In this document: piece after piece, positions 15,880-44,877 of the stretch
Position numbering within the stretch: the first letter of the stretch is position 1
How the letters are laid out: the number at the start of each line of letters is the position of its first letter
Assembly: GCA_965230975.1 (NCBI GenBank)
Contig: OZ246402.1
Location: 800,859-864,858, forward strand
Source: an uncultured Candidatus Saccharibacteria bacterium
Lineage (GTDB): Bacteria > Patescibacteriota > Dojkabacteria > J137
Length of the DNA stretch: 64,000 nt
Direction: 5' to 3'
The notes under the pieces: generated by a model
What the model saw: the letters and a program-made list of their open reading frames with translations, nothing else
Database searches by the model: none
Told to the model about the DNA's origin: nothing
Made by a program: the position numbers and the translations under genes

Positions 15880-16656
15880 TTATTGTGGCCTTAAAGTTCC
15901 GCTAAAGATTTGCCAAGCTAGGGCACTTTTAGCAACCAAACTTAAGATTATGTACATTCTTTCTCCAAAAATATAGCTTTTCCATGGTCCAACTTTTTTG
16001 TATTGCAAGAACATGTTTAAAGCAAATATATTAAAGAAAATGAATATAGAAGCCAAGATTGCGTATACAAAGCTTGGAATATTTGTACTTACAGATTGAA
16101 CTGCTCCGTAAAAATACATTCCAACTGCAACCCAAGGCACTATTCCTGCAAAGCAACCGAAAATGTAAGATGTCCAATTTGTTTTTTCTGTAGTTTGATT
16201 ATGAAGTTCCATCATTAAACCAAATAGGTTCATTGTTGCGTTTAAAGCAAATATTAAAATCAAGCTTGGTAAATCAAACATTCCGCACAATATTGCGATT
16301 GCTACAATCATTACGCTAGAACTTAATGCGTATTCGTACCATCTTAAATAGTTGATTTTCTTTTTTAAGTTTTTAACATACCATTCGTTTATTCCAGGCA
16401 ATATTATTAAAAAGTGAAAGAATGCAGATAAGAATAAGAATACTGCTATAAATTGACCTAGATTTAGTTTTAAAGCCTCTTGTGTCACCGGTAAAACTGT
16501 TCTTGCTTGAATATTAAAGTCTAGATATGTTGTTGTTAGTGGTATTTGAAAGTCTTTACTAACAAGCAACATCGCAATTCCTTGCACCAAGTGCAACACA
16601 AACATTACCGCATTGAATATGCGTAAGTTCTTAAATGTACGAGCTTCTTTATCCAT
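15880..16656 (-). CDS. heR: heliorhodopsin
   Basis: Seven TM helices with long collinear matches to the prototype HeR 48C12 as I recall it: RWYEYALSSSVMIV (counterion Glu), FGCFAGIVPWV, and LSLVAKSALAWQIFSGTL (retinal Lys). Conserved His residues sit in VLHLVQG and AFFHFLI. Confidence 0.9.
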   Translation of the reverse strand: MDKEARTFKNLRIFNAVMFVLHLVQGIAMLLVSKDFQIPLTTTYLDFNIQARTVLPVTQEALKLNLGQFIAVFLFLSAFFHFLIILPGINEWYVKNLKKKINYLRWYEYALSSSVMIVAIAILCGMFDLPSLILIFALNATMNLFGLMMELHNQTTEKTNWTSYIFGCFAGIVPWVAVGMYFYGAVQSVSTNIPSFVYAILASIFIFFNIFALNMFLQYKKVGPWKSYIFGERMYIILSLVAKSALAWQIFSGTLRPQ

Positions 16657-16729: not shown

Positions 16730-17305
16730 TTAACCTTCTTTATTTAATTTATATTGTTCGTAAACTAAATCTTCTTCTTTTGCAGAGAGTAGATTCATCG
16801 ATTTTAATCCAGTAATAATTTCTAAAATTCCTTTTTTGCCTATTCCTATTACAGGAAACTCATCTGTACCATGCAATAACTGGTATTTTACATAACCCAC
16901 TAAATGATATTTCTTTCTTTTTAAAACATTATGATAAATTGTAGATAGATTTAATGTGTCAATACTTACAGAAGGGTATTTCTCACTATTATTTTCACCT
17001 ATCAAGCTAATTATAATTGACTCGGTGTTTTGTATATTTACGGTTTTTAAGACTAAACCCGCTTCTAATCTATCTATATACCCTCTGTTAAACAAATTAA
17101 CTATTAGGTCTTGATATGATTCTCTAAACCCACCTGGAATATCTACAAGACCACCATTTCTAAAGTATCTTAGTCGTTTTAGTAAATCAGCAATCGTATA
17201 AATCCCTTTAGATTTTAAATGATCAATAAAATTATCTGGTAGTTCTAAAACTGCAATATCTAAATTTGTATCTTTATTTTGTAAGTAATCTGGTTGTGAA
17301 CTCAT
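16730..17305 (-). CDS. protein with two RNA polymerase alpha-CTD-like helix-hairpin-helix modules (short paralog)
   Basis: LELPDNFIDHLKSKGIYTIADLL and LNLSTIYHNVLKRKKYHLVGYV...IGIGKKGILEIITGLKSMNL follow the RpoA CTD pattern LxLSVRxxNCLKxxxIxxIGDL...NLGKKSLxEI. Confidence 0.65.
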   Translation of the reverse strand: MSSQPDYLQNKDTNLDIAVLELPDNFIDHLKSKGIYTIADLLKRLRYFRNGGLVDIPGGFRESYQDLIVNLFNRGYIDRLEAGLVLKTVNIQNTESIIISLIGENNSEKYPSVSIDTLNLSTIYHNVLKRKKYHLVGYVKYQLLHGTDEFPVIGIGKKGILEIITGLKSMNLLSAKEEDLVYEQYKLNKEG

Positions 17306-17339
17306 TTTATGGATATTAACTTGGTTGCATACTACTTTT

Positions 17340-18251
17340 CTATACTTCTAAAGGAATATCATATTTAGCTAATATTTGGATAAACTGATCTTGAGTAATA
17401 TACCCTTTCTGAATTAATTGGCTTGCTATCTCTTTAATTGATTTTTTTGAAAATTGGTTTAAAAGTAGTGGAGTTGATATTTCAAGCAACATGAATTTAA
17501 TCTCACCAACTGTGTGGTAACCATTTATGAATAAATTAAAGTGTAAACTTGAATCTAAGGATAGCGCACCCAATGGAATTTCCGGATATTCCTCGCTTGT
17601 ATTGGCTCCTAATAACCTAATTAAATCCAATTGTCCTGCACCTCTATTTAAACACTTAATGTATACTTCGGCTTCTATTCTGCTAAATAAGTTCATTTTA
17701 TAAAGTTTAGCAATACAGTCGCTAAAATCGTAAGGTGTAGAACCATTATCTATTCTTATTCCTCGCTTGACTAAAGACTTTAGAAGGTCCATAAGTTGAC
17801 CGACAGTATTAATATTGCTTTGATTGACAAGGCTTTGTAAGTCCTCATTTAAATCTAGCACACTTACATTGAGGGCTGCTGCATCTTCAGGGGATATTGG
17901 TTGACTTAGTAAGTAGTCTTTAAAGTCTGCTACTGTTAAGGTGGCAATATCGGGCAAAGTTTGTTGTATATCTGAAAGTAGTCTTATAACTTGTGCATGC
18001 TTTGTGGTATCTACTTCACCTTCATTTGCCAATACTTGGATTTTTGCTAATGCTAATGCTTTTATTGCTGGGAATTCCGGATTGATATTTGGGTTATTTG
18101 CTACATAGTTAAGGTAGCTAGCTATTGATATATCTGTAAAGCCGGCATCTAGTAATTGTTTTATTTGTAATTCCAAAACTGTATTACTTGTTGGGGGGAT
18201 TACATCCGGATCCTGTAATCGTGTATAAACTGGGAAATGCTGAAATGCCAT
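17340..18251 (-). CDS. alpha-CTD-like double-module protein (long paralog 2)
   Basis: The C-terminal ~190 aa are collinear with ORF 16730-17305 (RIEAEVYIKCL, LLGANTSEEYPEIPL, LSLDSSLHFNLFINGYHTVGEI). I prefer the ATG at 18251 over GTG 18287 because it aligns with the N-terminus of paralog 1. Confidence 0.6.
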   Translation of the reverse strand: MAFQHFPVYTRLQDPDVIPPTSNTVLELQIKQLLDAGFTDISIASYLNYVANNPNINPEFPAIKALALAKIQVLANEGEVDTTKHAQVIRLLSDIQQTLPDIATLTVADFKDYLLSQPISPEDAAALNVSVLDLNEDLQSLVNQSNINTVGQLMDLLKSLVKRGIRIDNGSTPYDFSDCIAKLYKMNLFSRIEAEVYIKCLNRGAGQLDLIRLLGANTSEEYPEIPLGALSLDSSLHFNLFINGYHTVGEIKFMLLEISTPLLLNQFSKKSIKEIASQLIQKGYITQDQFIQILAKYDIPLEV

Positions 18252-18353
18252 ATCAAGTTGAGTAATATGTATACTCGATATTAACACCTTGTTACTAATT
18301 TAGACAATCAGTTTTGTCATATCTTTTGCGTAACAAAGGTGGATAATTATTAG

Positions 18354-19286
18354 TTAGGCCTCAATTTCAAATCTGGCATATATTTCTTTTTTGTAATCTT
18401 CCTCCGATTTCTCATCATCTTTAAAATATCCTTTAGATATTAAAGCCTCAGTTATTCCTTTTATTCCACTTACCCCTATATTCTTAACATTGAATTCAGG
18501 GCCTCCAAATAAAAGCTCGTGTTTAACTTCTCCTATAAAAATATAACTACCTCTCATTAAAGCATTATATGTTCTTCTAGGAAGATCTAATTCAGATATA
18601 TCTATAGAAGGGAAACTTTCACTATTATTAGCTCCTATCAAGTTATCTACTTGACTCTCATCAGGAAATCTTGCAATAAATCTTAAATACAAACCTGCTT
18701 CTATTCTAGATATATAATTTAATTCAAATAGTTGAACTACTAAATCTATAAAAACTGGGTTATTCATAATACGACTAGCAAACTGGTAATCTTCTCTGAT
18801 TGTTCTTAAGAGCTGTACTAAATCTGAAATATTTTGAACGTTTCTTGATTCTAAAAGTGCTCTTAATTCTCCACTAGGTCTAATCATTTCGATTGAATCT
18901 TGTAAGTTGCCTGGAATTCCTGATTGCATTGTGGATTGATATATAAAATCCAAAAAACTTTCAACTGTTAGTGCTGATAAGTCTTCTGAGTTATCGTAAG
19001 CATATTGTAAAAGTGCGTTTAATTTTAAATAGTTTGATTCTTCAATATCACCTTTCTGTACTAATTGTTTTATTCTAAGTAAAACTACAGAAGTTATTGC
19101 AGAGTAGGTGGATTTATCTATTGATTCTAAGTTTTGTAAGTATGCAAAATATAAACTTATTTGAATATCTTCAAAATCGTTTGCTAAGATTTGAGATATA
19201 AGAGCTAAAAGATTATCTGCATGAATCTTTACATTTTCTGGTAAATCTTCAGAACTTAAGTAATTGTTTAGAGCTGCAAATACCAT
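18354..19286 (-). CDS. alpha-CTD-like double-module protein (long paralog 1)
   Basis: ELDLPRRTYNALMRGSYIFIGEVKHELL...NIGVSGIKGITEALISKGY closely mirrors the RpoA CTD. An upstream degenerate module reads ELRALLESRNVQNISDLVQLL. Confidence 0.65.
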   Translation of the reverse strand: MVFAALNNYLSSEDLPENVKIHADNLLALISQILANDFEDIQISLYFAYLQNLESIDKSTYSAITSVVLLRIKQLVQKGDIEESNYLKLNALLQYAYDNSEDLSALTVESFLDFIYQSTMQSGIPGNLQDSIEMIRPSGELRALLESRNVQNISDLVQLLRTIREDYQFASRIMNNPVFIDLVVQLFELNYISRIEAGLYLRFIARFPDESQVDNLIGANNSESFPSIDISELDLPRRTYNALMRGSYIFIGEVKHELLFGGPEFNVKNIGVSGIKGITEALISKGYFKDDEKSEEDYKKEIYARFEIEA

Positions 19287-19359: not shown

Positions 19360-20187
19360 CTAAAGTTGAACCTCTTTATTTTTGTACCTTAAAAGTGAAA
19401 GCGCAACCAAAATTACAATTGCGACAATCATTACAATTATATTTTCTGGCTTTAAACTACTAGTCTTGGTAATTCCATTTAAATCTAAATAATAGAACGG
19501 TGTTAAATACCGTACAAATTCTGGAAAACCTGGAATTCGCGATAACGTATCTACCATAAAAGAGCCTAGAGTTAATGCTAAACCTGCAAACAAGGCAACA
19601 CCTTCTGACTTAACTAACCCAGCAAACATGGCAATTACACTAAATAGTATTTGAACTATAAAGCCTGCGCTAAAAGCAGCAAAAAAGAATTGAGGATAAA
19701 ATGCGTTTTCACTACCCAAAAACTTAGAAGACAAACTAGAAATTAATAGCACAACTAAATTACTTATTCCAAGCAGTACTACAAAAGCTGCAAATTTAGT
19801 TAAGAATATGTTTTGTCTTTTAATCTTTTTTAAAAACAATATAAATACAGAACCATCATTTAACTCTTTAACAATCATTCTGTTTAAAATATAGCCGCCA
19901 ATAATCGAGTTGATTATTATTAATGTAGATAAAAACTTTGTGTTGTAATAGCCTTTAAATTCAACCAACGTTTTAGCATCAGATCCAAATGCCTCTAGTA
20001 GTTCTGGAGGGAATCCTTTTAAGACTTCTGTTAGTTGAGCTGCCTGCTCTTTGATTGTTCCAAACAATGCTATTAACATTACAGCCATAGAGGCGAATAT
20101 TAATCCCCAAAAGATCATTAACTTTAAATGTCTTTTAAATTCAAACATAAAGACCGTTGTGGATTTGTTTAGTTCTGTTTTATTCAT
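19360..20187 (-). CDS. ABC-2 type transporter permease
   Basis: Six hydrophobic helices. Overlaps the upstream ATPase gene by 8 nt. Confidence 0.7.
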   Translation of the reverse strand: MNKTELNKSTTVFMFEFKRHLKLMIFWGLIFASMAVMLIALFGTIKEQAAQLTEVLKGFPPELLEAFGSDAKTLVEFKGYYNTKFLSTLIIINSIIGGYILNRMIVKELNDGSVFILFLKKIKRQNIFLTKFAAFVVLLGISNLVVLLISSLSSKFLGSENAFYPQFFFAAFSAGFIVQILFSVIAMFAGLVKSEGVALFAGLALTLGSFMVDTLSRIPGFPEFVRYLTPFYYLDLNGITKTSSLKPENIIVMIVAIVILVALSLLRYKNKEVQL

Positions 20188-21058
20188 AATATTTCATAAA
20201 AATATCTTCTAGTGTTGGGTGTTCTATATAAAAGTCTGTTATGTCGTTTTCAAATAGAGTAGTTACGTCCTTTTTTACATCGCTTGTTAAGATTATGTAG
20301 TCTCCATTATCGTTTTGGGTTATTCCTTTTTTGAATATGTTTCTTAGTTTTTTAGATTCTTTGCCAAATTCTATTCTTATTTTTTTAGAATCTCCGTTTA
20401 GCACTTTTTTGGTGTCTCCTTCCATTAATATTTTGCCGTCTTTTATTAGTATTATTCTGTCTGTTATTTTTTCTACTTCTGATAGTACATGAGAGCTAAA
20501 GAATATTGTGCTGCCTGTTTTTTTTAGTTCTGTTAGTTCTTTTAGTACTTTGTTTTGCATTATTGGGTCTAGTGAGTTTGTTGGTTCGTCTAGTATTAAT
20601 AGTTTTGGTTTATGTTGTAATGCATTTACTATTGCTACTTTCTTTTTATTACCTAATGATAGTCTTCCAAACTTTTTGTTTAAATCTATTTCAAAGCTTT
20701 GTATTAAATGGTCAAAGTATTGTTTATCAAAGTTTTGGGATAATGATGCTGAGTAGTTTAGTATTTCTTTTACCGTTAAGCTTGTTGGAAATGTTGGTTC
20801 TCCTGGTAAGAATCCTATTTGTTCTATTACTTTTTGTAGATCTTCTAATGTTGTTATTTGCTCTCCAAACAGTTTATAACTCCCACCTGTTAGATTGGCA
20901 AAACCCAATATTGTTCTTATTGTGGTTGTTTTGCCGGCGCCGTTTGGGCCTAAGAATCCTACAATTTCGCCTTTGTTTAGCGTTATGTTTATGTTAAAGG
21001 CTCCTTTGTTGTTTGTGTATGTTTTGGTTAGGTTTGTGGTTTGTAGTATTGGGTCCAT
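20180..21058 (-). CDS. ABC transporter ATP-binding protein (ABC-2/DrrA-like)
   Basis: Walker A GPNGAGKTT, signature LSLGNKKKV, Walker B LILDEPTNSLD, H-loop SSHVL. Confidence 0.9.
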   Translation of the reverse strand: MDPILQTTNLTKTYTNNKGAFNINITLNKGEIVGFLGPNGAGKTTTIRTILGFANLTGGSYKLFGEQITTLEDLQKVIEQIGFLPGEPTFPTSLTVKEILNYSASLSQNFDKQYFDHLIQSFEIDLNKKFGRLSLGNKKKVAIVNALQHKPKLLILDEPTNSLDPIMQNKVLKELTELKKTGSTIFFSSHVLSEVEKITDRIILIKDGKILMEGDTKKVLNGDSKKIRIEFGKESKKLRNIFKKGITQNDNGDYIILTSDVKKDVTTLFENDITDFYIEHPTLEDIFMKYYE

Positions 21059-21159
21059 TTATTTAGTATATTCCTAGTTACTTCTCTTGGCAATTTTTGT
21101 TTTTACGTTTTTAGTTAAGGGTAAATAGATGATATAATACATCGATCTTTTAGCAATAT

Positions 21160-21235
21160 GGTGGTTGTAGCTCAATGGTAGAGCACTCGCCTGTGGAGCG
21201 AGGTGTTGTGGGTTCGAGCCCCACCAACTACCCCA
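21160..21235 (+). tRNA. tRNA-His (anticodon GUG) with encoded G-1 and CCA
   Basis: G-1 followed by acceptor GTGGTTG/CAACTAC, anticodon arm CTCGC-CTGTGGA-GCGAG, T arm GTGGG-TTCGAGC-CCCAC, discriminator C, CCA. Confidence 0.9.
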
Positions 21236-24152
21236 AATTTGATTCTTCCCATTCTTTTTTATACTCGTAGTAATTAGGTGATCTATTCTCAATAAAAGTG
21301 TTCAGAATTTCCTCAATTTTATCGGCTGGCTCTTTAAATTCAATTAACTTTTTAACGGCCTGATCCATATGGTCTGAAGGATTTAGACCCTTTGGATAGT
21401 TAGCTAAATAATCCATCCATTTTATGAATTCTTCTTTACCTGCTTTATTTAATATTTTCAGTAGGATGTCTCCATTCTTGTAAAATGGCCACCAATTCAA
21501 CTGTGATAAATCATTTTGACCTTTAAAGAACTTTCTCTCATTAATAATACACTTAGTCCAAAGTGAGAAGCATTCTGTGAATTTCTCATCAATATTCTCT
21601 TCTATGAAATAATAGATTCTTTCATAGATTTCGTGATTATAAACTTTTGTGAATTTCTCTAAATATTTAATAGCAATTTTAAAATTTTCATTATGATGCG
21701 ACTTATCTGATCCTAGTCTCCAGAAATTCCATGCGATATTTACTTTAATACTCTCAGAGGAATTTTCCATCAAATCAAACAATATGCTTTTGAATGGCTT
21801 ATCATTAAAGGTGTTGACTTTGTACCAATAGTCCTTACCCAAAACTGCTTCAAAAGCTTTGGATTTATAAGCTTTTGCTCTAAATTCCGCATAGAAGATT
21901 ATCAATGGAAGGAAGTGGTCTATAACTACCTCATAAGGTGATTTACTTGATCTGTTATTGTATACATTTGTCAAAGGTAAATTCAATATTATATTTACAA
22001 ATTTCATTGCTTTATCCTCTTCTATACTCCTCATAAAGCCAAAAACGTTAACTATAGACTTCATTAATTCCATAACAGATTGATTATTTTTATCTACTAG
22101 CATATCAAAAGCGATTGATTCTATTTCTTGTGCTAGTTCGAATGAAATAAATCTTTCAACAGGCATAATATTTGGCATTTTTGTATGCCTGTTTTTCGCG
22201 AGTTCAGTTAAAGGTACGCATGCTTGCATTCTTACATAGTAACTTGAATCTTGAGATAAAATCCTTACAAGTTTCGTAACTTCAGCTAAATAAGCCCGCC
22301 CACTTAAATTACAAAAATATAACAATGCCCAAGCACAATAACCCCTAACTGTTGTAATTATTGAAACTTCATTTTCATTTTTAAGCAAATCTAATTCAAC
22401 ACTATCCTCATGAATTGGATCTTTATCTTGAATAAATATTCTTATTAACTTTAAAGACTCATCAAAAAACTTATTTCTTGCCAATTTCTCAGCAAGTTTA
22501 ACTATGTTTTGTCTTGCTAAATTTTCGCTAAAGAATTGTTCAATTTGAGCAATATTATTATCATATTTAGTCAGTATTGGATCTAATACCCTATAAACCT
22601 GTATAAATAAATCCGAATCATCAGGTATGTAATCAATAATACTAGTAATTGAATTTTGTTGATTTGGAGTTAGTGTTACTTCGTTTAATATATTACTTAT
22701 AAGTGTAGTACCCTTATTTATATCTTTTTGAAGTATGGTAACTAACAATCTCGAAAATTTAAATACCTCAAAATGTTCTGTTTCGATCTTAAATTTATCA
22801 GTATTAACATAGTTGGTTAGGGCATCGATGCCTTCGTCAAAACTTATATCCGAACTGATTAATTTACTTATTATCTCAAACGGATTGAAGCCCCAATGAC
22901 CATGTCGTTTCAAATAAGTAGAGTTATTTAACCAGACTTTTAATATCTCATTTGCTTCAGTATTACCTTCAGCAGCAAGGTCTGACACGATTTGCTCAAC
23001 AAACACATTTGCCGGTGCTCCGTTATATCCCTTTATCTTTAACTGTTCTTTAACATAGTCTAATTTTACTGTGCCAGAAAGTTTCTTTGAGTTTCTAAGT
23101 GCCTGAAAAATCAATTCTGTTTTATAAGGGATTCCACTTCTCATCAGAATAAACTTCTTAAGAATATATTTAGTTTCTTTGACATACTTATCTTCTTCTA
23201 GATTCTGAATTAGTAAAGGAATAACAGCTCTATTAAGAAAATCTGGCCTTTTTGTGTTAATCTTTTTCTCATCAACCTCTATCAAATTTTCTTTTATATA
23301 ATTCCAGGTTTCATCATCGAACTTATAAAATTCTTCAAGAGCTGGAGTTAGTGCATACATCACAAAGTGCCTATCAAATAGAGAATGTTCATCATTCAAA
23401 CTTGATATTCCAGCACCCATATGTTCCCATCCTTTAAATCCATCTTTTATACCTATTCTCTTATAGTCTTGTTTATACTGCTTGACTATAATCTTTTTAA
23501 TTTTTAAGAAATTACTTTCAAAATCGAGATTAATATAATTCCTGAGAATAGTGAATACTGTTTTAGGAGTATATAAATCATATTCTCCATCACCAGCTAC
23601 TAAGTTAAAATATTTATCAAGTAAGAAAACAATCTCTGCTAATTCTTCAATCTGATTAATCATTTTAGATGAAGCATTTCCCAATAATTCTGCAACTTGT
23701 ATTTTTTCGTGCTCTAATTTATTTCTATGATCTAAGGATTTATAGCTATGTCCTCTATGTGTTAGTACTATTTTAACTATAGTAATTAAGTCATTATATT
23801 GTAGTAAATTATTATTAAACATCGTATTTAATGTATGAAGAAGACTATTTGATTCAAATTCAAGAAAGCCATCTATATTATTGACGAGAAGTTCAAGGAA
23901 AAACGACTTGCCTATTTGTGGATAATTATCCTCGAGTGTTTTTAAGACCAAAAAATATTCTCGATTTTTAATCAAGAAGTCTATTAAACTGATAAAAATT
24001 TCGTTATTAAAGTTATTCGTAAGTTCTTTTAGGTAGTATCTTAGCATCATAGGATCATGTACGATCTCGTTAAGAGATGCAATATCTTTCTCACTTAGGT
24101 GCTGTTTGTCTAAAGTTTCTTTTATTTTTGATATTTTATAGAGCTGGTTCAT
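21228..24152 (-). CDS. 974-aa all-helical repeat protein (HEAT/ARM-like), unknown function
   Basis: No TM helix or signal peptide. It shows a repetitive amphipathic helix pattern, and VRGYCAWALLYF...YVRMQACVPLTELAKN resembles HEAT repeats. The 3' end overlaps the tRNA-His 3' end antisense by 8 nt. Confidence 0.6.
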   Translation of the reverse strand: MNQLYKISKIKETLDKQHLSEKDIASLNEIVHDPMMLRYYLKELTNNFNNEIFISLIDFLIKNREYFLVLKTLEDNYPQIGKSFFLELLVNNIDGFLEFESNSLLHTLNTMFNNNLLQYNDLITIVKIVLTHRGHSYKSLDHRNKLEHEKIQVAELLGNASSKMINQIEELAEIVFLLDKYFNLVAGDGEYDLYTPKTVFTILRNYINLDFESNFLKIKKIIVKQYKQDYKRIGIKDGFKGWEHMGAGISSLNDEHSLFDRHFVMYALTPALEEFYKFDDETWNYIKENLIEVDEKKINTKRPDFLNRAVIPLLIQNLEEDKYVKETKYILKKFILMRSGIPYKTELIFQALRNSKKLSGTVKLDYVKEQLKIKGYNGAPANVFVEQIVSDLAAEGNTEANEILKVWLNNSTYLKRHGHWGFNPFEIISKLISSDISFDEGIDALTNYVNTDKFKIETEHFEVFKFSRLLVTILQKDINKGTTLISNILNEVTLTPNQQNSITSIIDYIPDDSDLFIQVYRVLDPILTKYDNNIAQIEQFFSENLARQNIVKLAEKLARNKFFDESLKLIRIFIQDKDPIHEDSVELDLLKNENEVSIITTVRGYCAWALLYFCNLSGRAYLAEVTKLVRILSQDSSYYVRMQACVPLTELAKNRHTKMPNIMPVERFISFELAQEIESIAFDMLVDKNNQSVMELMKSIVNVFGFMRSIEEDKAMKFVNIILNLPLTNVYNNRSSKSPYEVVIDHFLPLIIFYAEFRAKAYKSKAFEAVLGKDYWYKVNTFNDKPFKSILFDLMENSSESIKVNIAWNFWRLGSDKSHHNENFKIAIKYLEKFTKVYNHEIYERIYYFIEENIDEKFTECFSLWTKCIINERKFFKGQNDLSQLNWWPFYKNGDILLKILNKAGKEEFIKWMDYLANYPKGLNPSDHMDQAVKKLIEFKEPADKIEEILNTFIENRSPNYYEYKKEWEESNLG

Positions 24153-24759
24153 TTATATTTTCTATATTAGTATTGATTGGATTTTCTATATACTTTTTTA
24201 TTTGAGGATCATTAGCATTACTTGGAAATCTGTCATCTCTTAAAATATTACAAATTCTTCTAAAATCATCAACATTGAATTTATAGTTTTGTGAATATTT
24301 TTCGTTGTAACAATGAATTGTTGACTGAATTTTTCTTGCTATGTCTCGACCATTTGCAAAACGAAAGAAAAGATACCCTCCATTAATACGACTAAGGATA
24401 TGTAACTTGGCTGCATGGTTAAAATCACCCGAAGTAACAATATACAATTCTCCAAGTTTACCAGCATCATGCAACATTGTGAATTCATTGTTAAGCGCCT
24501 CACTTGCCTGATTACAAACTGTCCGAATATCCTTATCCGTATTTCCACTTTTTACAATATCTTCAGCTTTTAATAAAACACCTCCTATTAAACGATCAGA
24601 AGAGTAGAAATCACAAAAAGTATAAAGAATATCAACTCCATTTTCGGAGTTACCGTGATTATCTTCAACAAAATGATAGTTGACTTCATACAATGGGATT
24701 ATAACCTTTAACCTCAGAGTATTTTCGTCTAAATGTTTTATCTCATCTTCAATTGACAT
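24136..24759 (-). CDS. Mrr-cat/PD-(D/E)xK-like restriction-endonuclease-fold protein (putative, atypical active site)
   Basis: The element order matches Mrr_cat: helix ...IIPLYE, GVDILY (Asp), GGVLLKAED (xxK strand), then ELYIVTSGDFNHAAK (compare ITTSxFTxxA). The position usually held by E/Q is Leu. It overlaps the downstream gene by 17 nt. Confidence 0.45.
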   Translation of the reverse strand: MSIEDEIKHLDENTLRLKVIIPLYEVNYHFVEDNHGNSENGVDILYTFCDFYSSDRLIGGVLLKAEDIVKSGNTDKDIRTVCNQASEALNNEFTMLHDAGKLGELYIVTSGDFNHAAKLHILSRINGGYLFFRFANGRDIARKIQSTIHCYNEKYSQNYKFNVDDFRRICNILRDDRFPSNANDPQIKKYIENPINTNIENINEPAL

Positions 24760-24844
24760 TTTCTGGATATTAGAATTTTATAAAGATGTTATCACCTTTA
24801 ATACCAATTGTCTTTAGTTTAAATAAATATATACTCAGTATAAA

Positions 24845-25801
24845 TCATACCCTCACCACCACGCTTCCTCTTTTTCTTCCTGTTTCTACATACTCATGTG
24901 CTTTTGCAATATCTTCAAACTCAAATACCCTATCAATATTCGGCTTTAACTTATTACCTTCAATCAAATCTATCACAGCTTGTAAATCCTCCTTCTTTTC
25001 CGGAGCAGTACCAGTCAAGAATTTCTTACCATCTTCACGATTTTTCTTAGCAAACAACTCTGGAAAAGTAGCAACCGCCTGTAAAAACACACCATTAGAA
25101 TTCAACAAATGCTTATAATCCTTAAACCTCAAATTACCAACAACATCTAAAATAACATCAAACTTTAAAGACAAATCCCTCAAATTAATATTCTTATAAT
25201 CAATAACATCTTTAGCACCTAAAGACTTAACAAAACTTGCATTACTACCGCTACAAACACCAACAACACTAGCACCGTTAGACGCTGCAATTTGAACAGC
25301 ATTAGAACCAACAGCACCAGAAGCACCATTAATCAAAACACTCTGACCAGCCTTAAGATTACCCAAATTCAAAAAAAACAAAGCAGTACATGCACCAAAA
25401 GGAACACCAGCAGCCTCTTCAAAACTTAAATTTGATGGCTTAAGCAAAATAGCACTACTAACATCAATAACAACATACTCGGCATAAATATTAAAAACCC
25501 TAAAACCAATAACTTCATCTCCAACTTTAAAATCTGTAACACTAGACCCAACCTCTTCAACAACACCAGAAAACTCAGAACCTAAAATCTTTTTTCTTGG
25601 TGCAAAAATCCCCAAAGCTAACCTTGCTGGAATACTAAAACCCTTAGGGAATTTTGCACTCCTAATTCTTACATCCCCTGAAGTTACACCAAAAGCTTTA
25701 ACTTTAACTAATACCTGTGTAGGGTTTGGAGTTGTTTTATCAACCTCAGTAATTTTAACAACTTGTGGGCCACCATATTTTGTTACAATCGCTGCTTTCA
25801 T
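24845..25801 (-). CDS. NADPH:quinone oxidoreductase / medium-chain dehydrogenase-reductase family
   Basis: GroES-like N-domain (GEVIGF) and Rossmann motif INGASGAVGSNAVQIA. Confidence 0.8.
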   Translation of the reverse strand: MKAAIVTKYGGPQVVKITEVDKTTPNPTQVLVKVKAFGVTSGDVRIRSAKFPKGFSIPARLALGIFAPRKKILGSEFSGVVEEVGSSVTDFKVGDEVIGFRVFNIYAEYVVIDVSSAILLKPSNLSFEEAAGVPFGACTALFFLNLGNLKAGQSVLINGASGAVGSNAVQIAASNGASVVGVCSGSNASFVKSLGAKDVIDYKNINLRDLSLKFDVILDVVGNLRFKDYKHLLNSNGVFLQAVATFPELFAKKNREDGKKFLTGTAPEKKEDLQAVIDLIEGNKLKPNIDRVFEFEDIAKAHEYVETGRKRGSVVVRV

Positions 25802-26160: not shown

Positions 26161-26329
26161 AATTTATTATTTAACAGATAAGGAAAATTCTACCAGTAAA
26201 ATTGATAAATTGCATAATTATATTTCAAAGTAGTTATTACAACATCACTTTTCTAGACTATTACTCACAGCTCTATATTTAATGTATACAAGGGTATTCA
26301 TTTACCCCAAATAATATTATAATCTACTT

Positions 26330-26737
26330 ATGAAATTTGTAGCCTGCTTTATAATATTTGAAAACAAAATACTAACTGTCAAAAGATCTTCCAATGAAGT
26401 TGAAGGTGGTAAGAATGGCTTAATTGGAGGTGGAATTGAAGATGGAGAGCTAGCTATTGATTCTATGACAAGAGAAATTCGCGAAGAGATAAACTTACAG
26501 GTAAATGGTAACGACTTAATAGATCTTGGAAATCACAAATTGCCATTTAATGGGGTAGAAGTAGAGTTTAATTGCTATAAATTGAACCTAAAAGAGTCAT
26601 TTAATCCTAAACTTGATCCAAACGAAGCAGAAGGTTTTGAATGGGTTACAATTGATGAACTACTATCTAAACCAAATCTTGTAAGTGGATTAGGAGAGCT
26701 AATTGAAATTCTAGGGAAAGATCGAATAGTAAGCTAA
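26330..26737 (+). CDS. NUDIX hydrolase
   Basis: Nudix box GGGIEDGELAIDSMTREIREEINL (Gx5Ex7REUxEExGU pattern). Confidence 0.8.
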   Translation: MKFVACFIIFENKILTVKRSSNEVEGGKNGLIGGGIEDGELAIDSMTREIREEINLQVNGNDLIDLGNHKLPFNGVEVEFNCYKLNLKESFNPKLDPNEAEGFEWVTIDELLSKPNLVSGLGELIEILGKDRIVS

Positions 26738-26853
26738 ACCTCTATAAGATAAATTAATTGACTTGTATTTTCTCCCTCAGATACAAAAGTCATCTTCAGA
26801 AAAGTTTATCCATATCTGCTATTATTAAGTCGTTAACTTATTAAAATTAACCT

Positions 26854-27237
26854 ATGCTAAAAATAAACCCATGGATCAACTTTAACGGCAATGCAGAAGA
26901 AGCATTTGATTTTTATCAATCAATATTTGGAGGCGAAATTCAAAAAGAACTAGATGAAAACAACAACTTAATGTTTATAAGATTACCAATAGGTGCACAA
27001 AATACATTAATTTCAAACAACGTACCCGAAGAATTAGGAAAAGTAAACGAACGGGAAAATAGAAGCAAAATAGATGTAAGCACAGACAACAAAGAAGAAG
27101 CAGAAAGAATATTTAACGGACTATCACAAGGAGGAGAAGTAGAAGTACCAATGAGCGAAGGCATGGGAATGTTCTTTGGAATGCTAAGAGACAAGTATGG
27201 AATAGAGTGGATAGTTGAATATAATTCAAATAACTAG
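26854..27237 (+). CDS. VOC/glyoxalase-superfamily protein (PhnB-like)
   Basis: The N-terminus INPWINFNGNAEEAFDFYQSIFGG and the C-terminal RDKYGIEW are typical of PhnB-like proteins. Confidence 0.65.
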   Translation: MLKINPWINFNGNAEEAFDFYQSIFGGEIQKELDENNNLMFIRLPIGAQNTLISNNVPEELGKVNERENRSKIDVSTDNKEEAERIFNGLSQGGEVEVPMSEGMGMFFGMLRDKYGIEWIVEYNSNN

Positions 27238-27265
27238 AAAAACCCAATCGTATTTAACCTTACAA

Positions 27266-27853
27266 CTACAATTGTTCCCACTCTTCATAATCAATTACAT
27301 GAGCTGTAATACTTCCATTAGAATCAACTTGATATAATAATTGTCCAGCATCAAAATCTAAAAGTATTAATCCTCTTGTATGTGCGAATTGCCTAATAGT
27401 TTTTATATGATTAATAACAATACTTTGCTGATCTTCGGTTAAATCATTATAAGAAATACCATTTTCTATAAAAGGTGCATAAGAAACAAGTAGCTGTTGC
27501 CCTGCATTACGTTCACTAATAAGCCATGGGAGAAATGATGAGGCAGTTTCGGGAGATAAGGCAATTGCATAATTAATCGGCTGTAATTGCAAACTAAAAG
27601 TATCATCTGCAAATTGGGCATTGAAAGCGGTTACAAAATTTTCCATAGGATCTTGCAGCATCATCTCTTGATTTTCTGCATCGGTATCATGAAAACCTGC
27701 TTTTACCATATATTTGCCTGTGCTTGTAGAAAGTACTGTTTTTAAACGCGACTCATCTTCTCTTGCTTGTAATTCCTGTAGATGCTCAAATCCGACTCTT
27801 CTAAAAAAATCCTCGCAATTTATTTGTTGGTCACAATTAAATACTATGTCCAT
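27266..27853 (-). CDS. hypothetical protein
   Basis: 195-codon ORF. LILLDFDAGQLLY...HVIDYEEW only weakly recalls kinase-like folds. Confidence 0.45.
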   Translation of the reverse strand: MDIVFNCDQQINCEDFFRRVGFEHLQELQAREDESRLKTVLSTSTGKYMVKAGFHDTDAENQEMMLQDPMENFVTAFNAQFADDTFSLQLQPINYAIALSPETASSFLPWLISERNAGQQLLVSYAPFIENGISYNDLTEDQQSIVINHIKTIRQFAHTRGLILLDFDAGQLLYQVDSNGSITAHVIDYEEWEQL

Positions 27854-27957
27854 TAAAGGTTTTTAAACACTTAATTATATCATCAATCCATATCTTTTGA
27901 TATTATCAGTTCCGCAAAGTAAAACAATTTGGAAACAGATCTAAATGAATATATTAT

Positions 27958-28581
27958 TTACATTAACTCCCATCTTTCTCTCATCACTTCGCTATACATT
28001 CCCGCTATCTCTCTAGCACTAGGCAATTCTAAAGTCTTTGTCTTATCAAACTTTCTTTGTAACTCTAACTTTCCATTCCCTTCTGCTAAGCTCTCAGCCC
28101 AAGCGTAAAATGCTGTTTGCAATACCTCATCTGTAACAAAAGCAATCTTATCTGCCTCTTTAACAATCTTTTGCTCTATACAAGAATTAATAGTCTCTGG
28201 ATTTTCAAAAAGAATATTCCTCAACTTATGTAATTGATCTGGGCTTAAATCTAAACTTTCAAAGAACTCATTTGCAATATCCCAATTAAATTGTGCATGT
28301 CTTTGTTGAAGAACTTGTGGAGTTTCATCAGCAGTCTTACCAATATCATGAAAAAGAGCACCCAGCAAAATAACTTTTAAATCTGCATCTGTATAATCCT
28401 TAGCAACTTCAACAGCAATGTTCATAACATCTATACTATGATTAATCATAATATCTGCGTTATTAAAACTATATCTTGGGTTTGCATTAAACCTATCTCT
28501 TACAAAAGCTTGAGCACTTTGCTTTACTTGAGCTAAACCTTTACTATCTAAGTAAGCTTGAAGTGATGGATCTGTAAACAT
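27958..28581 (-). CDS. HD-domain phosphohydrolase
   Basis: H...HDIGK motif (GALFHDIGKT) and a downstream D in KEADKIAF. Confidence 0.75.
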   Translation of the reverse strand: MFTDPSLQAYLDSKGLAQVKQSAQAFVRDRFNANPRYSFNNADIMINHSIDVMNIAVEVAKDYTDADLKVILLGALFHDIGKTADETPQVLQQRHAQFNWDIANEFFESLDLSPDQLHKLRNILFENPETINSCIEQKIVKEADKIAFVTDEVLQTAFYAWAESLAEGNGKLELQRKFDKTKTLELPSAREIAGMYSEVMRERWELM

Positions 28582-28648
28582 AAAGCTTAGTGTATTAAAG
28601 TATATAAATATTAGTTAAAATAATAACACAATCTTTACTTGAATAATT

Positions 28649-30640
28649 ATGAGAAATACGGGAATAGAAGGCGCGATAGATTCTGACCCAAGCACAGAAC
28701 TAATTACAAATTTCGAACAACTAGTTAAAGTAGCCCAACTTTACAGATTAGATTACCTAGACTTAAGACACCCTTATATAAAAAGAAGTATAAGTACGTA
28801 TCAGGGTTACCCTAGATATACAGAAACTATACAAGATGAAGATGAGCAGGGTAATGACGTTCAGACAGAAGTTAAAATTAATACTGAGTGGCATACTTCA
28901 ATAGAAGGAATAACAAGTGGTAAACCAAGGCTAATATTAGAAGTGAGATGCGCAACTTTCGGTAGTACTGAAAAAACTAAAACGAATGTTCAAAAATTAG
29001 TTGCTGATAACGCCGCATACAAGCTTAATCCCAAATACCTACTTTTAGAAGTAAGTATTGAGAATATTGATAGGATATTTGAAGAAATTTATAAATTGGT
29101 TTTAGCATTAGAAAAAGCTTTCGACGAACCTTCAATTTCACAGTCTGAACGAATAGACAATGTAAACATTATCATTAAAACAATAGCACAGGGATTAAAT
29201 CAGGTAAGTCAATATCTTAATAACTTTGAAAACAACAAAGAAAGGCAGACATTATTAGCACAAACCATAAACCCTAATATAATTACCGTTTTTAATATTT
29301 ATTATGATGAAAAGGAGAAGGATTATCCTATTATAAAACCAGAATCTATTGCCAAATACTATTTTTTAACAAGAGCTTGTTTAAGCCAGGGTTATACCGA
29401 TATAAGTTATGAACAACAGATTTATCTTAGAGATCAAATATTGACAATAGCCAAAGAAATGTTTTCTGCACTTTTTTACTTAAATCTAGGCGGAGATTAT
29501 AGATCAAAATGGGACCCTAACGGTGAATTTGCTAGTAGAGTTGAAGAAGCTTCAACCTTTGAAGAGATAAAAGAGATATATCAAGAATTTATACCAAAGA
29601 TAGAAGAAGTTATAAAACCTTACATAACAGGTAAGCGAAAAGAAGTAAGTGGATGGGAAGAGGTTGCACTTATTTTGTTTATGCTAGGTGAAGAATTAAC
29701 AATAAAAACACCCAGACTAAGGCTAATTATATCTCTTTTAGAAAAATTTATTCATTTTACACATTCTGGAAATGAGGAGTCTACAATATCTCAAAGATTA
29801 GTAAGATTTAACATGAATGCATTACTACCTTTTCTAATTGCAAGTGAGGGACATTCTGACCCAAAGGAGATTTCATGTCTCTTTCAAACACTAAGCCCTC
29901 TCGAACAAGAAGAAGTATTGCGAATGTTTCCACAAATAGATATAGAAGATTACACTGATTTAGATGTATTAAACATGATTTTGGAATCAGAAGCAGATGA
30001 TTTAAAAGGGGCATTTTGGCGTAATTTAATAAATCCAGATTTAAGAATGAGAGGTGGTACAAACTCTAGTAATATGACCTTTGAGATAGCGAATGTGGGG
30101 GATGGAGAAAATACTTCTTGGAAAATACTTTGCGATTTATATACTAAGTTTTACAGATTTTCTAGATACGACCCAAACAAATCATATAGAGCTTTGAATT
30201 TTAGATACGAAGATTTTAAATACGCTAGCCCTATAATGTGCGAGTTCTTAGAATGGTATCCAAAAGTAAATAAAAAGCTATTTGAAAAACTTTTAGAAAA
30301 ATTAAAAGTTGAAAACGAAGAACCAGATTTTAATGCTAAAAAAGTATTATCATTTTTACAAGATAATGTATTTTCACAAACTTTGATTAATCTAGGTAAA
30401 GATAGATACGAGTTAGTAAAAGTACCTGAAAGTAACTTACAAATATTACTAATAGACCAACCACCAATAAATATTCAAATAGCTGCAGAATTTACAAATC
30501 TAAATGGTGAAGTTAAGTCAAAAGATTCTTTTGTTCCAATTGTTTTTATAAATGGAGTTGAAGTTACAAGTCTTGAATCAATTCTCTCACATTTAGGTAT
30601 TGTTCAAGCAATAAAATACAAATTTCAGCAAGGAGATTAA
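28649..30640 (+). CDS. hypothetical protein, 663 aa, cytoplasmic
   Basis: Long uninterrupted ORF with no TM helix and no recognisable motif. Confidence 0.55.
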   Translation: MRNTGIEGAIDSDPSTELITNFEQLVKVAQLYRLDYLDLRHPYIKRSISTYQGYPRYTETIQDEDEQGNDVQTEVKINTEWHTSIEGITSGKPRLILEVRCATFGSTEKTKTNVQKLVADNAAYKLNPKYLLLEVSIENIDRIFEEIYKLVLALEKAFDEPSISQSERIDNVNIIIKTIAQGLNQVSQYLNNFENNKERQTLLAQTINPNIITVFNIYYDEKEKDYPIIKPESIAKYYFLTRACLSQGYTDISYEQQIYLRDQILTIAKEMFSALFYLNLGGDYRSKWDPNGEFASRVEEASTFEEIKEIYQEFIPKIEEVIKPYITGKRKEVSGWEEVALILFMLGEELTIKTPRLRLIISLLEKFIHFTHSGNEESTISQRLVRFNMNALLPFLIASEGHSDPKEISCLFQTLSPLEQEEVLRMFPQIDIEDYTDLDVLNMILESEADDLKGAFWRNLINPDLRMRGGTNSSNMTFEIANVGDGENTSWKILCDLYTKFYRFSRYDPNKSYRALNFRYEDFKYASPIMCEFLEWYPKVNKKLFEKLLEKLKVENEEPDFNAKKVLSFLQDNVFSQTLINLGKDRYELVKVPESNLQILLIDQPPINIQIAAEFTNLNGEVKSKDSFVPIVFINGVEVTSLESILSHLGIVQAIKYKFQQGD

Positions 30641-30724
30641 ATTAGCTAATTGCATTTCCACCCACACCTTACTATACTAGTATTAACTCCTGGGTTTACT
30701 ATACTATTTGTTAAGCTAAACTAA

Positions 30725-31696
30725 ATGAGCAAGCCAACCGTACTTATAATAGGTGGAACAGGATATATAGGCTACCACGTTTGCAAAGAGCTTGTTGCAC
30801 AAGACTATAGCGTAACGGCAATATCAATAGACGATGTACCTCAAAATTTTTTACCAGAACAAGTAAAAATAGTTAAAGCAAATATAGAAAAGCTAACAGA
30901 TGAACAACTATCAGAACTATTTAAAGACATTGACTACTTTATATTTGCAGCAGGCGCAGACGATAGACTAACACCAAAAGCACCATCTTACCCATTCTTT
31001 TACAAAGCAAACGTAGAATCTGTAGAAAGATTGTTAACAATCGGCAAATCAGCAGGAGTAAAGAAATGCGTAGTACTAAACTCTTACTTTGCATACTTTA
31101 ATAGAACCTGGCCACAAATGCAGCTCGCAAAAAAGCACCCATATATAAGATCTAGAGTAGCGCAACAGGAGATGGCATTCAAAATTGGAGGTGACACAAT
31201 GCCAGTAGCAGTTTTAGAACTACCTTACATAGTAGGAGTAACACCAACCAAAGGATCTTTATGGAAAGGTCTTGTAAAATATGTAAACTCTAAGGGCAAT
31301 ACAAAATACTATACAAAAGGAGGAACAGCAGTAACATCTGTAAGAAATGTAGGGTTAGCAATTGCAAACGCATTAAAATTCACAACACAAAACACACAAT
31401 ATCAGGTTGTAGATATTAATATGACTTGGGAGGAGTGGTTAAAAGCTTTAAGAGTAGATAAAACAAGAGAGATTAAAGTTGTAAGCATACCAACATTTTT
31501 AGTAAAAATCGCATCTGTATTCATGCTAATTAGGTACAAACTAAAAGGTGAAGAACCTGGTTTAAATATTGTAGATTTTATTGACCTGCAAACTAAAAAT
31601 ACCTTCTTACCAATAAAAGAAAGCCAACAAGCTTTGCAGTATAATAAATACGATATAAATCAAGATTTTGAAGATACAGTAAAGCTTTGCGCGTAG
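30725..31696 (+). CDS. NAD-dependent epimerase/dehydratase family (atypical SDR)
   Basis: N-terminal Rossmann motif VLIIGGTGYIGYHV. Confidence 0.7.
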   Translation: MSKPTVLIIGGTGYIGYHVCKELVAQDYSVTAISIDDVPQNFLPEQVKIVKANIEKLTDEQLSELFKDIDYFIFAAGADDRLTPKAPSYPFFYKANVESVERLLTIGKSAGVKKCVVLNSYFAYFNRTWPQMQLAKKHPYIRSRVAQQEMAFKIGGDTMPVAVLELPYIVGVTPTKGSLWKGLVKYVNSKGNTKYYTKGGTAVTSVRNVGLAIANALKFTTQNTQYQVVDINMTWEEWLKALRVDKTREIKVVSIPTFLVKIASVFMLIRYKLKGEEPGLNIVDFIDLQTKNTFLPIKESQQALQYNKYDINQDFEDTVKLCA

Positions 31697-31710
31697 TTTA
31701 TATAAAAGCA

Positions 31711-31735
31711 AAATGCCCACCAAAGGTGGGCATTT
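31711..31735. terminator. bidirectional hairpin terminator between convergent genes
   Basis: AAATGCCCACC-AAA-GGTGGGCATTT. U-rich runs follow it on both strands. Confidence 0.6.
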
Positions 31736-31749
31736 CTTAATTCAATTAC

Positions 31750-33390: not shown

Positions 33391-33534
33391 AAAATAATAA
33401 TAAAAATGTAATATACCAATATTAGTATTTTGTAGTGTACATTGCAATTTAGGTATAAAAGTTTGGGAATATTTTCTTCTTATGATTAGTTGGCTATAGT
33501 ATAATATTCAAATCTTACTTAACTAAAATCTATT

Positions 33535-34050
33535 ATGCTTCAAAGTAAAATATCTGACGACAATGCACGTAAATTTAACAAGTATTCTAAAGCACCCGAA
33601 ATAATGCCAAGAGATGAAATTATTAACAAAAAATCAGTCTTAAAAACAGACAAAGGCGTAATAGAAATTAAACTATTTGGAGACGAAGCACCTTTAGCTG
33701 TAAGTAACCACATCTTTTTAGTAAAAGATAAATTCTATAACAATATAATCTTTCACAGAAGAGAAGAGGGATTTGTAATTCAAGGTGGAGACCCACTAGG
33801 AAAAGGATACGGAGGACCTGGTTACCAATTTGAAGATGAACCTGTTATGAGAGATTACACACGAGGGATTGTTGCAATGGCAAATGCCGGCCCAGACACA
33901 AACGGAAGTCAATTCTTTATAATGCTAGACAATGTACCATTGCCCCCTCTATACACAATATTTGGCGAGGTAATATCTGGATTAGATGTAGTAGATCAGA
34001 TTCAAATAGGAGACACCATTCTTGAAGCTAAAATTGAAGATTTAGATTAA
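33535..34050 (+). CDS. peptidyl-prolyl cis-trans isomerase, cyclophilin type
   Basis: FHRREEGFVIQGGDP, GIVAMANAGPDTNGSQFFIM. Confidence 0.9.
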   Translation: MLQSKISDDNARKFNKYSKAPEIMPRDEIINKKSVLKTDKGVIEIKLFGDEAPLAVSNHIFLVKDKFYNNIIFHRREEGFVIQGGDPLGKGYGGPGYQFEDEPVMRDYTRGIVAMANAGPDTNGSQFFIMLDNVPLPPLYTIFGEVISGLDVVDQIQIGDTILEAKIEDLD

Positions 34051-34061
34051 ACAATAATTCT

Positions 34062-34529: not shown

Positions 34530-34561
34530 TTCTATTAAATAACGCTAATTAAGCGTACAAA

Positions 34562-35182: not shown

Positions 35183-35312
35183 AGAAAGAGTGAAAACTAT
35201 ATCTGTATTTATTTATATTATATTTCAGATATATAAAATACCTAGTTAATTTCAATTCAATTAATAGTTGAGAGTAACATTTAAATTAAAACAACTCTTA
35301 AATAGTGAAAAA

Positions 35313-44876: not shown

Positions 44877-44877
44877 A

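Follow-up and report, generated by a model that had tools for sequence, protein, structure and literature searches.

A candidate immune module of an Mrr-like nuclease-fold protein and a HEAT-like solenoid in a strain-variable slot at tRNA-His

The locus

What is the function of two overlapping genes, one small and one very large, that abut the 3' end of a tRNA-His gene in a Patescibacteria genome? A sequence-only reading of the window, the 64,000-nt stretch of DNA analysed here, had proposed them as a candidate defence or DNA-surveillance module in which a small nuclease-fold effector is coupled to a huge repeat scaffold. The features on which the question turns are the following.

24136 to 24759, minus strand: gene A, 207 aa, a predicted Mrr/FokI-type PD-(D/E)xK-fold protein, the proposed effector
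21228 to 24152, minus strand: gene B, 974 aa, a predicted cytoplasmic HEAT/ARM-like alpha-solenoid of the 'short form', the proposed sensor/scaffold
24136 to 24152, minus strand: the A-B overlap, 17 nt, from the gene A stop to the gene B start
21161 to 21235, plus strand: tRNA-His(GTG), whose 3' end plus 7 nt is one border of the strain-variable segment
21243 to 24850, strand not applicable: the strain-variable segment, exactly genes A and B with an 85-nt upstream spacer

Both open reading frames, their 17-nt overlap and the 8-nt overlap with the tRNA were re-derived from the window; the TAG stop codon of gene B (21228-21230) lies inside the tRNA-His 3' end. The unrelated neighbours were confirmed as well: the pair is flanked by an ABC ATPase with an ABC-2 permease and, at its opposite end, by a Zn-dependent ADH-type oxidoreductase. 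Genes A and B are arranged as an operon and are probably translationally coupled. Where A and B meet in related loci, the usual arrangement is a 4-nt ATGA overlap or some other short overlap or gap. A promoter and terminator scan gave signals no higher than the shuffled expectation. The host genome of the cassette is small and low in GC (a 1.19-Mb contig with 31% GC).

The pair had also been placed at a change in silent-site composition, which turned out to be only partly correct. The third-position A/T bias does drift across the region and is the sole silent-site measure to do so, but the GC3 values of the pair (0.256 and 0.202) are within the range of the window (0.216 ± 0.034). Hence, the composition change is weak evidence.

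Strain variability at the tRNA-His slot

The same slot is filled differently in the sister strain L025. Its flanks are about 95% identical to those of the window, and the blastn blocks stop at window positions 21242 and 24851. Between them, 8.4 kb of unrelated genes replace genes A and B, and this cargo includes an OLD/AriA/GajA-like ATPase (PADLOC AriA, 3e-20). The expectation that the 3' end of tRNA-His receives accessory DNA was thus borne out, and the pair, which is missing in L025, does not belong to a universally fixed core context. The locus resembles a tRNA-linked island in that close relatives carry different cargo at the tRNA 3' end. It differs from one in the integrase and the distal repeat of the tRNA end that such islands would have. 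No tRNA-derived (att-like) repeat is present in 21100-25000, and no integrase-like ORF in the 3.6-kb segment, whose entire ORF content is genes A and B. Relatives of the two proteins were absent from the phage, plasmid and IMG/VR contigs searched.

Gene A and its rearranged active site

The product of gene A is a predicted Mrr/FokI-type PD-(D/E)xK nuclease fold. Its predicted secondary structure is alpha-beta-beta-beta-alpha-beta and its core fold resembles solved Mrr/FokI-type nucleases. The Mrr-like order of elements read earlier from the 207-aa ORF agrees with this secondary structure and with the family alignments, and structure prediction gives the nuclease-like fold that such a reading calls for. 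The core spans approximately residues 1-145. The helices C-terminal to it (approximately 150-192) are peculiar to the stand-alone subfamily whose members pair with gene B. Direct profile searches of both proteins of the pair (Pfam, NCBIfam, PADLOC, PHROGs and PDB sequences) yielded nothing usable, and gene A has no direct match to Pfam PF04471 (Mrr_cat). A word-indexed search for homologs of gene A returned gene A alone. Exhaustive HMMER search recovered 86, of which 39 match PF04471 with a best E-value of 2.2e-7. In other homologs the domain is joined to a NACHT/STAND NTPase or a HEAT array, a layout known from Avs-type immune proteins.

The signature of gene A reads E12, E39-x-G41-x-D43, L62-x-K64, Q84 and E104. 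Residues E12, E39, G41, D43, K64 and Q84 are invariant or near-invariant in the family alignments. The conserved helix acid is E12 and not the Glu of IIPLYE, the helix named in the earlier reading. A canonical signature would consist of a helix E, a D and (E/Q)xK. In gene A, E12, D43 and K64 are in place, but position 62 is Leu, as had been pointed out before. Gln is found at this position in half of the family (42 of 86 members) and in none of the 20 gene B partners. As Leu stands for the Q/E of (E/Q)xK in every gene B-associated member, the catalytic competence of gene A is uncertain. The Glu at position 104 is clade-specific and, judging from the sequences, could possibly be a relocated catalytic acid.

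Gene B and the two forms of its family

Gene B is all-alpha save for one beta hairpin, and in the structure model, which was built from six sequences, helical-hairpin repeats stack into a solenoid. It contains neither a transmembrane segment nor a Walker A motif, and no enzymatic motif was recognised in the solenoid. The prediction therefore agrees with the initial description of the 974-aa protein as helical, cytoplasmic and HEAT/ARM-like with no enzymatic motif. Nothing above threshold was obtained for gene B against the Pfam HEAT/ARM profiles; its homolog P0004 has sub-threshold HEAT_2/HEAT matches. Walker A is missing in all six B-family proteins checked, and NACHT/AAA Pfam matches are absent from gene B and its homologs. 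A profile search with the B alignment in a word-indexed database added no new members.

About 85% of the B proteins are of a long form of approximately 1200 aa, which bears its own N-terminal nuclease-like domain with the pattern GxxxQ...E...D...ExK. Short forms are devoid of this domain, and 10 of the 11 assessable ones pair with a nuclease gene; at one further short-form locus the partner is unclassified. On sequence grounds, B-family loci appear almost always to include a nuclease or a nuclease-like domain. The combined length of A and B (207 + 974, or about 1181 aa) is that of a long form, and a frameshifted long-form gene was considered. This was rejected because A is unrelated to the long-form N-terminal domain (BLASTP; hhalign probability 1%). 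A split gene is also at odds with the recurrence of a short form with an A-type partner in at least seven loci.

Conserved pairing, partner swapping and linkage to restriction-modification genes

About 100 loci encode B. They are mostly from CPR bacteria, and the distribution is patchy, with members in many CPR phyla as well as in MAGs of archaea (two) and gammaproteobacteria (three); B was found in 15 of 185,579 species representatives. In approximately 84 of the roughly 93 assessable loci an overlapping gene precedes B, and this partner slot is occupied by five mutually unrelated classes.

Mrr207, the 207-aa gene A family: 24 loci
Cap4-like nuclease: 28 loci
Schlafen/AlbA_2: 22 loci
REase-2, a second REase-like type: 7 loci
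CHAT protease-like: 3 loci

The label 'Cap4-like' is based on the motif, a faint PF14130 match, a weak PADLOC match and an hhalign comparison between these partners and the long-form N-terminal domains, neither of which has a significant match in Pfam or the PDB.

In 24 loci a B-family gene is immediately preceded by one of the A family, and at one locus the two appear to be joined in a single reading frame, with A at the N-terminal end of B. The pairing recurs, at identities of about 30%, in no fewer than 20 non-redundant loci (20 of the 24). This recurrence and the apparent fusion support the functional coupling of the two genes that had been suggested for the window. No conserved third gene was found downstream of A/B-type pairs, and no adaptor domain shared across the effector classes was detectable by phmmer. 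Anti-phage immune systems swap effector genes in the same way as is seen here between at least five enzyme types.

The top Pfam families among the 98 upstream neighbours all belong to restriction-modification (R-M) systems (N6_Mtase 18, Eco57I 18, TaqI_C 13, MmeI_Mtase 12, N6_N4_Mtase 11, ResIII 9 and HSDR_N 5). Co-directional R-M genes are found upstream in 42 of 91 loci, or in about 38 of the 61 (about 60%) in which the upstream sequence exceeds 2.5 kb, and downstream in one locus only. The linked systems are type IIG/MmeI-like, type III and type I; with several types represented, the association is with R-M generally and not with one enzyme. This proximity to known defence genes is non-random and is seen in many unrelated genomes. 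Around the window copy, no R-M genes are present. Taken together, the five interchangeable partner classes and the strong R-M linkage fit the sensor-plus-effector logic originally attributed to the pair.

Comparison with known systems

Neither gene A nor gene B matches any PADLOC 2.0 HMM at E ≤ 1 (the set includes Lamassu, Avs, Upx, Gabija, PARIS and the PDC/HEC candidates). The only PADLOC match among the B homologs is that of the P0007 N-terminus to the CBASS 'Effector endonuclease' model (0.022). A named system corresponding to the nuclease and solenoid pair was not found in the literature searched. One defence system derived from Patescibacteria, 'Dallas', has been described (PMC12366544). 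The A/B family is apparently conserved and unnamed, in line with the earlier statement that the pairing is not a known system.

As outlined in a recent preprint, Lamassu combines a conserved LmuB with diverse LmuA effectors (bioRxiv 10.1101/2025.06.23.660979). The likeness lies in a constant large core with exchangeable effectors (Cap4-type and Mrr-type nucleases, proteases) encoded by operons in defence islands. However, LmuB is an SMC core, whereas gene B is a HEAT-like solenoid with no SMC/ABC ATPase and no Walker A. Furthermore, A and B have no PADLOC Lamassu match, and the effector here is a separate gene with no adaptor detectably common to the classes. Avs proteins are antiviral STAND NTPases, here considered in the forms with N-terminal Mrr-like or Cap4-like nucleases. 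Their central P-loop STAND NTPase is absent from B, and in the window effector and sensor are separate polypeptides. Lacking the STAND NTPase module, B cannot be activated by NTP-driven oligomerisation. Upx is a single NTPase-free PD-(D/E)xK defence protein of about 1200 aa, reported to be a sensor of phage terminase (PMC13099982, PMC13601566); it is similar to the A/B module in that PD-(D/E)xK nuclease domains are joined to a large regulatory or sensing region and an NTPase is missing.

Gene A has the fold and most signature residues of the Mrr/type IV and type IIS nuclease domains (PF04471; FokI, MspJI, LlaBIII). It differs from them in having no DNA-recognition domain of its own, in the Leu replacing the acid or amide of (E/Q)xK, in the clade-specific E104 and in its genomic dependence on a solenoid partner. 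PrrC, an abortive module embedded in an R-M locus, guards the R-M system EcoprrI. A/B-type modules are likewise often embedded in R-M loci on the same strand, but they contain neither an ABC-ATPase nor an anticodon-nuclease domain, they accompany several R-M types, and many copies, that of the window included, stand alone.

Proposed function and alternatives

We consider it likely, with a probability of about 0.68, that A and B constitute a two-gene, horizontally mobile candidate immune (conflict) module, in which B is the constant component and A the exchangeable effector. Gene B is most likely both sensor and scaffold, a HEAT-like solenoid of about 1000 residues that has no NTPase. We infer that A and B are co-translated into a complex that would hold the nuclease inactive. 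The trigger would be an invader-derived ligand bound by the solenoid. A phage protein is the most probable candidate; a feature of the DNA, or the state of an R-M enzyme encoded next to the pair, is less likely. Binding would release or activate the presumed nuclease, which would degrade DNA and stop the infection, possibly at the cell's expense.

A broader proposal, which we advance tentatively and at somewhat short of even odds, is that the family represents an undescribed NTPase-free immune system enriched in CPR/DPANN. Its fixed part, acting as sensor and scaffold, would be the HEAT-like solenoid of about 1000 residues, which would be combined with no fewer than five interchangeable classes of effector (Schlafen, CHAT protease and two or three PD-(D/E)xK types). 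Usually positioned directly behind R-M operons, the module may be a second line of defence, called on once restriction has failed. The window would hold the most reduced version, whose sole nuclease is Mrr-like, its active-site residues rearranged to hxK plus E104.

By analogy with PrrC and EcoprrI, the linkage could also mean that what the solenoid senses is an R-M enzyme or the state of methylation, and that it frees the effector when an anti-restriction protein blocks restriction. The same-strand R-M genes upstream of about 60% of the well-flanked loci, and downstream in just one, are consistent with such a guard, and effectors that do not target DNA (CHAT protease, Schlafen) would suit an abortive back-up. 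However, some 40% of the well-flanked loci, the window among them, have no adjacent R-M genes, the variety of unrelated R-M types speaks against a specific protein-protein guard interface, and defence-island clustering by itself could produce the adjacency. We regard a dedicated guard role as unlikely; if it applied, the copy in the window would count as an orphan, still functional by itself or together with an R-M system from another part of the genome. It is far less probable still that the solenoid is an antitoxin that neutralises a small nuclease toxin and so stabilises the island and the adjoining R-M cassettes with no phage sensing. An overlapping two-gene operon in which the potentially toxic nuclease comes first, strain variability at a tRNA site and interchangeable toxin-like partners are all compatible with addiction. 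But a highly conserved antitoxin of about 1000 aa would be unusual, the nuclease-like domain carried by most B proteins themselves would be senseless in an antitoxin, and the relatives are missing from plasmids and phages, where addiction modules abound.

A housekeeping or DNA-repair role, i.e. a HEAT-like scanner with a partner endonuclease for damaged or modified chromosomal DNA, is the least credible of the alternatives. Its partner genes would have to include a protease and a Schlafen protein, and the genomic context is R-M rather than repair. The absence of the pair from L025 in spite of its near-identical flanks and the sporadic occurrence of B among species representatives largely refute it.

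Significance of the candidate module

Much of microbial diversity falls within CPR/Patescibacteria and DPANN archaea. These lineages are poor in CRISPR-Cas, and few of their defence systems are known (PMC4742961; PMC12366544). If the immune reading is true, this family of about 100 loci would be a lineage-typical immune system, in which a giant NTPase-free solenoid is served by swappable nuclease, protease or Schlafen effectors and is mostly encoded directly downstream of R-M operons. With a single small nuclease-fold protein and a single solenoid, the window copy is the simplest of the set and thus a convenient entry point for biochemistry. The family would add a new sensor architecture to be set beside Avs, Lamassu and Upx, and it would make it possible to test concretely whether accessory modules serve as a back-up to restriction.

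Genomic context of the pair

The two genes abut tRNA-His in the following arrangement:

21161-21235 (+), tRNA-His(GTG)
21228-24152 (-), ORF B, a 974-aa solenoid protein
24136-24759 (-), ORF A, a 207-aa nuclease-fold protein

Re-reading of the DNA returned the same two ORFs and the same 17-nt overlap between them as the original sequence-only reading. The overlap of the large gene with the tRNA is also real, as the 3' end of tRNA-His contains the TAG stop of B (21228-21230) and its final two codons. The flanking genes, described earlier as unrelated to the pair, are an ABC ATPase and ABC-2 permease on one side and a Zn-ADH-type oxidoreductase on the other. The argument from a change in silent-site composition is weak because the GC3 values of A and B (0.202 and 0.256) are ordinary for the window (0.216 ± 0.034), and the only composition measure that drifts across the region is the third-position A/T bias. 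The ABC ATPase gene (20180-21058, minus strand) has an extreme excess of third-position A over T (A3/(A3+T3) = 0.81), compared with 0.29 and 0.26 in the ADH and DUF6326 genes on the opposite side of the pair, and this contrast is probably what was perceived as the change.

The tRNA-His site had been suspected of receiving accessory DNA, and presence/absence polymorphism had been proposed as the way to examine it. L025, a sister-strain contig from another sample (Logan SRR12404957_64901), has the ADH, tRNA-His and ABC genes in common with the window at ~95% nucleotide identity. The homology ends exactly at window positions 24851 and 21242, between which L025 carries 8.4 kb of other genes, so that A and B are strain-variable cargo. 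The nine genes in this slot (L025:10952-19378) include a 563-aa OLD/AriA/GajA-like ABC-ATPase (PADLOC AriA 3e-20, Old 1e-16). Hence, judging from gene content, the slot looks like a cargo hotspot with defence-type genes in both strains. Neither an integrase nor an att repeat is present at the A and B segment of the window. A 476-aa protein in the L025 slot has a weak PDC-S09 match.

Gene turnover is high over the whole 26200-34600 stretch upstream of the ADH gene, and not at the tRNA alone. Compared with L025:1-9600, it is a mosaic of conserved blocks (82-95% identity) with replaced genes between them: a NUDIX gene (26330-26737) stands against a 2',5' RNA-ligase-family gene in L025, and a 663-aa gene (28649-30640) against an M23 peptidase and a 384-aa gene. 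Elsewhere in the window, three tandem genes (16730-19286, minus strand) encode proteins of 191, 315 and 310 aa, the latter two of which look paralogous. The 310-aa protein has a weak match to the RNA polymerase alpha-CTD (PF03118), and the 191-aa protein a faint precomputed one. A 258-aa protein (15880-16656, minus strand) has a precomputed Heliorhodopsin match (PF18761) in this ~1.19 Mb genome. At 35268-47838 (plus strand) a giant ORF of 3202 aa precedes one of 986 aa, and the GC content here is ~0.37 versus ~0.31 in the rest of the window.

Gene A and its active site

Gene A has no direct match in Pfam, NCBIfam, PADLOC, PHROGs or PDB sequences and was ORFan-like in a word-indexed homolog search. 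When 1.84 billion representatives were scanned exhaustively with HMMER, 86 relatives emerged at E<=1e-3; 39 of them match Pfam Mrr_cat (PF04471), and others are fusions to NACHT/nSTAND NTPases or HEAT arrays. The AlphaFold model (39-sequence alignment; pLDDT 88.4, pTM 0.82) contains an alpha-beta-beta-beta-alpha-beta core, and a Foldseek search with it returned Mrr/FokI-type nuclease folds. Gene A is thus predicted to be an Mrr/FokI-type nuclease-fold protein, in agreement with the PD-(D/E)xK assignment made from the sequence.

G36, G41 and D43 are invariant in the family, and E12, E39, K64 and Q84 are nearly so. The leucine reported at the usual E/Q position is genuine (Leu62); this position is Gln in 42 of the 86 members and hydrophobic in 43. 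None of the 20 non-redundant members adjoining a B gene has Gln here. Glu occupies position 104 in 18 of 21 B-associated members, compared with an acidic residue in 14% of the clade with Gln at 62 (QxK). The B-associated subfamily therefore has a systematically altered site (a hydrophobic residue at 62 with K64, and E104) in which the other residues are still conserved, and this pattern suggests a rearranged but functional site.

Gene B and its distribution

Gene B matches nothing in the profile libraries or PDB sequences, also when searched as a 17-sequence profile. Its AF2 model rests on just 6 sequences (pLDDT 81, pTM 0.63) and is all-alpha except for one hairpin, much as had been read from the sequence. 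Gene B is modelled as a HEAT/ARM-like solenoid, and its family is uncharacterised. Most relatives are ~1200 aa long owing to an additional N-terminal domain of ~230 aa. The invariant residues of this domain (G5, G11, Q15, E38, D44, E58-x-K60 and D86-E87) form a PD-(D/E)xK-like signature, and the domain is weakly related to Cap4/DUF4297-like partner genes (hhalign, E 1.8e-4). The window copy of B and those at 11 other loci are short forms, which begin downstream of this domain. In a Microgenomates MAG (L013:4439-8077) and a Euryarchaeota MAG (L023:9224-12717), B is broken into three consecutive ORFs beside an intact upstream A-type partner; the breaks reflect either decay of the gene or frameshifts introduced in assembly.

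Fifteen B loci came from a scan of 185,579 species representatives; a metagenome scan added 85, and 80 of these were kept. The hosts among the 15 are CPR bacteria (Daviesbacteria, Shapirobacteria, Microgenomates, Saccharibacteria, Gottesmanbacteria, Falkowbacteria, Moranbacteria and Parcubacteria), three 'uncultured Gammaproteobacteria' MAGs, one Woesearchaeota MAG and one Euryarchaeota MAG. B relatives are absent from IMG/VR, GenBank phages and PLSDB plasmids. Proteins identical to A and B are present in three other assemblies.

The partner gene

B is directly preceded by a co-directional gene in 84 of the ~93 loci with a readable upstream region, typically with a 4-nt overlap. These partners fall into five mutually unrelated classes: Cap4-like nucleases (28 loci), the A family, Mrr207 (24), Schlafen/AlbA_2 proteins (22; PF04326, down to 6e-19), a second REase-like class (7) and CHAT-like proteins (3; PF12770, 2.5e-4). 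No conserved third gene was found downstream of B. Pairing of B with an upstream gene is conserved, with the partner as a swappable cassette. The best homolog of A (P0008) sits between an MmeI/type-ISP methyltransferase and a 969-aa short-form B, and a second homolog (P0010) is paired with a short-form B in the same way. At one locus (L110:60-2763; contig coverage 7x), an A-type domain continues in frame into a short-form B for the ~95 residues at its start, and a frameshift then places the remainder in the next ORF; the arrangement could be a genuine fusion interrupted by a sequencing error, or else a pseudogene.

Eleven assessable short forms have a partner of known class; this is a nuclease gene in 10 and a member of the A family in 7. 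For this reason, at least one putative PD-(D/E)xK domain is almost always present per locus. The partner at one additional short-form locus, L037, is unclassified; there (L037:800-8155), B is 1279 aa long, differs at its N-terminus and comes straight after a 1151-aa type IIG-like gene. The upstream partners at L032, L040, L101 and L106 are genes of ~210 aa outside the five classes and may represent a sixth effector class.

Interpretation

The best supported reading, to which we assign a probability of about 0.7, is that A and B form an immune module, with the solenoid as constant sensor or scaffold and the upstream gene as effector. The five partner classes in front of a constant solenoid favor the sensor-plus-effector logic proposed in the sequence-only reading. 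The analogy with Avs and Upx (PMC13601566) points to a phage protein, recognised by the solenoid, as the default candidate for the trigger.

The commonest Pfam families among 98 upstream neighbours at non-redundant loci are all restriction-modification (R-M) families (N6_Mtase, 18; Eco57I, 18; TaqI_C, 13; MmeI_Mtase, 12; N6_N4_Mtase, 11; ResIII, 9; HSDR_N, 5; Methylase_S, 4), and Tsp45I, HpaII and DpnII nucleases also occur there. A seeded phmmer search placed R-M genes upstream of B in 42 of 91 loci, or ~38 of the 61 that have >2.5 kb of sequence on that side. Nearly all of these genes are co-directional with B, and R-M genes lie downstream in only one locus. No R-M genes adjoin the window copy. 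The main rival, which we consider rather improbable, is that the module guards R-M systems. A housekeeping role and a toxin-antitoxin pair are both unlikely.

The preferred reading of an immune module has parallels in known systems. The A/B family shows a logic similar to that of Lamassu, with its constant core and diverse effectors, and of Avs and Upx, in which a nuclease is combined with a large sensor, whereas the SMC and STAND ATPases that define Lamassu and Avs are missing from it. Neither protein is recognised by Pfam, NCBIfam, PADLOC or PHROGs, and no named system matching the pair was found in the literature, the Patescibacteria-derived 'Dallas' lying outside the sequence comparison; the pairing had not been recognised as a named system in the sequence-only reading either. 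On the strength of this shared logic, and with no library or literature match, we place A and B among the modular sensor-effector defence operons as their candidate function.
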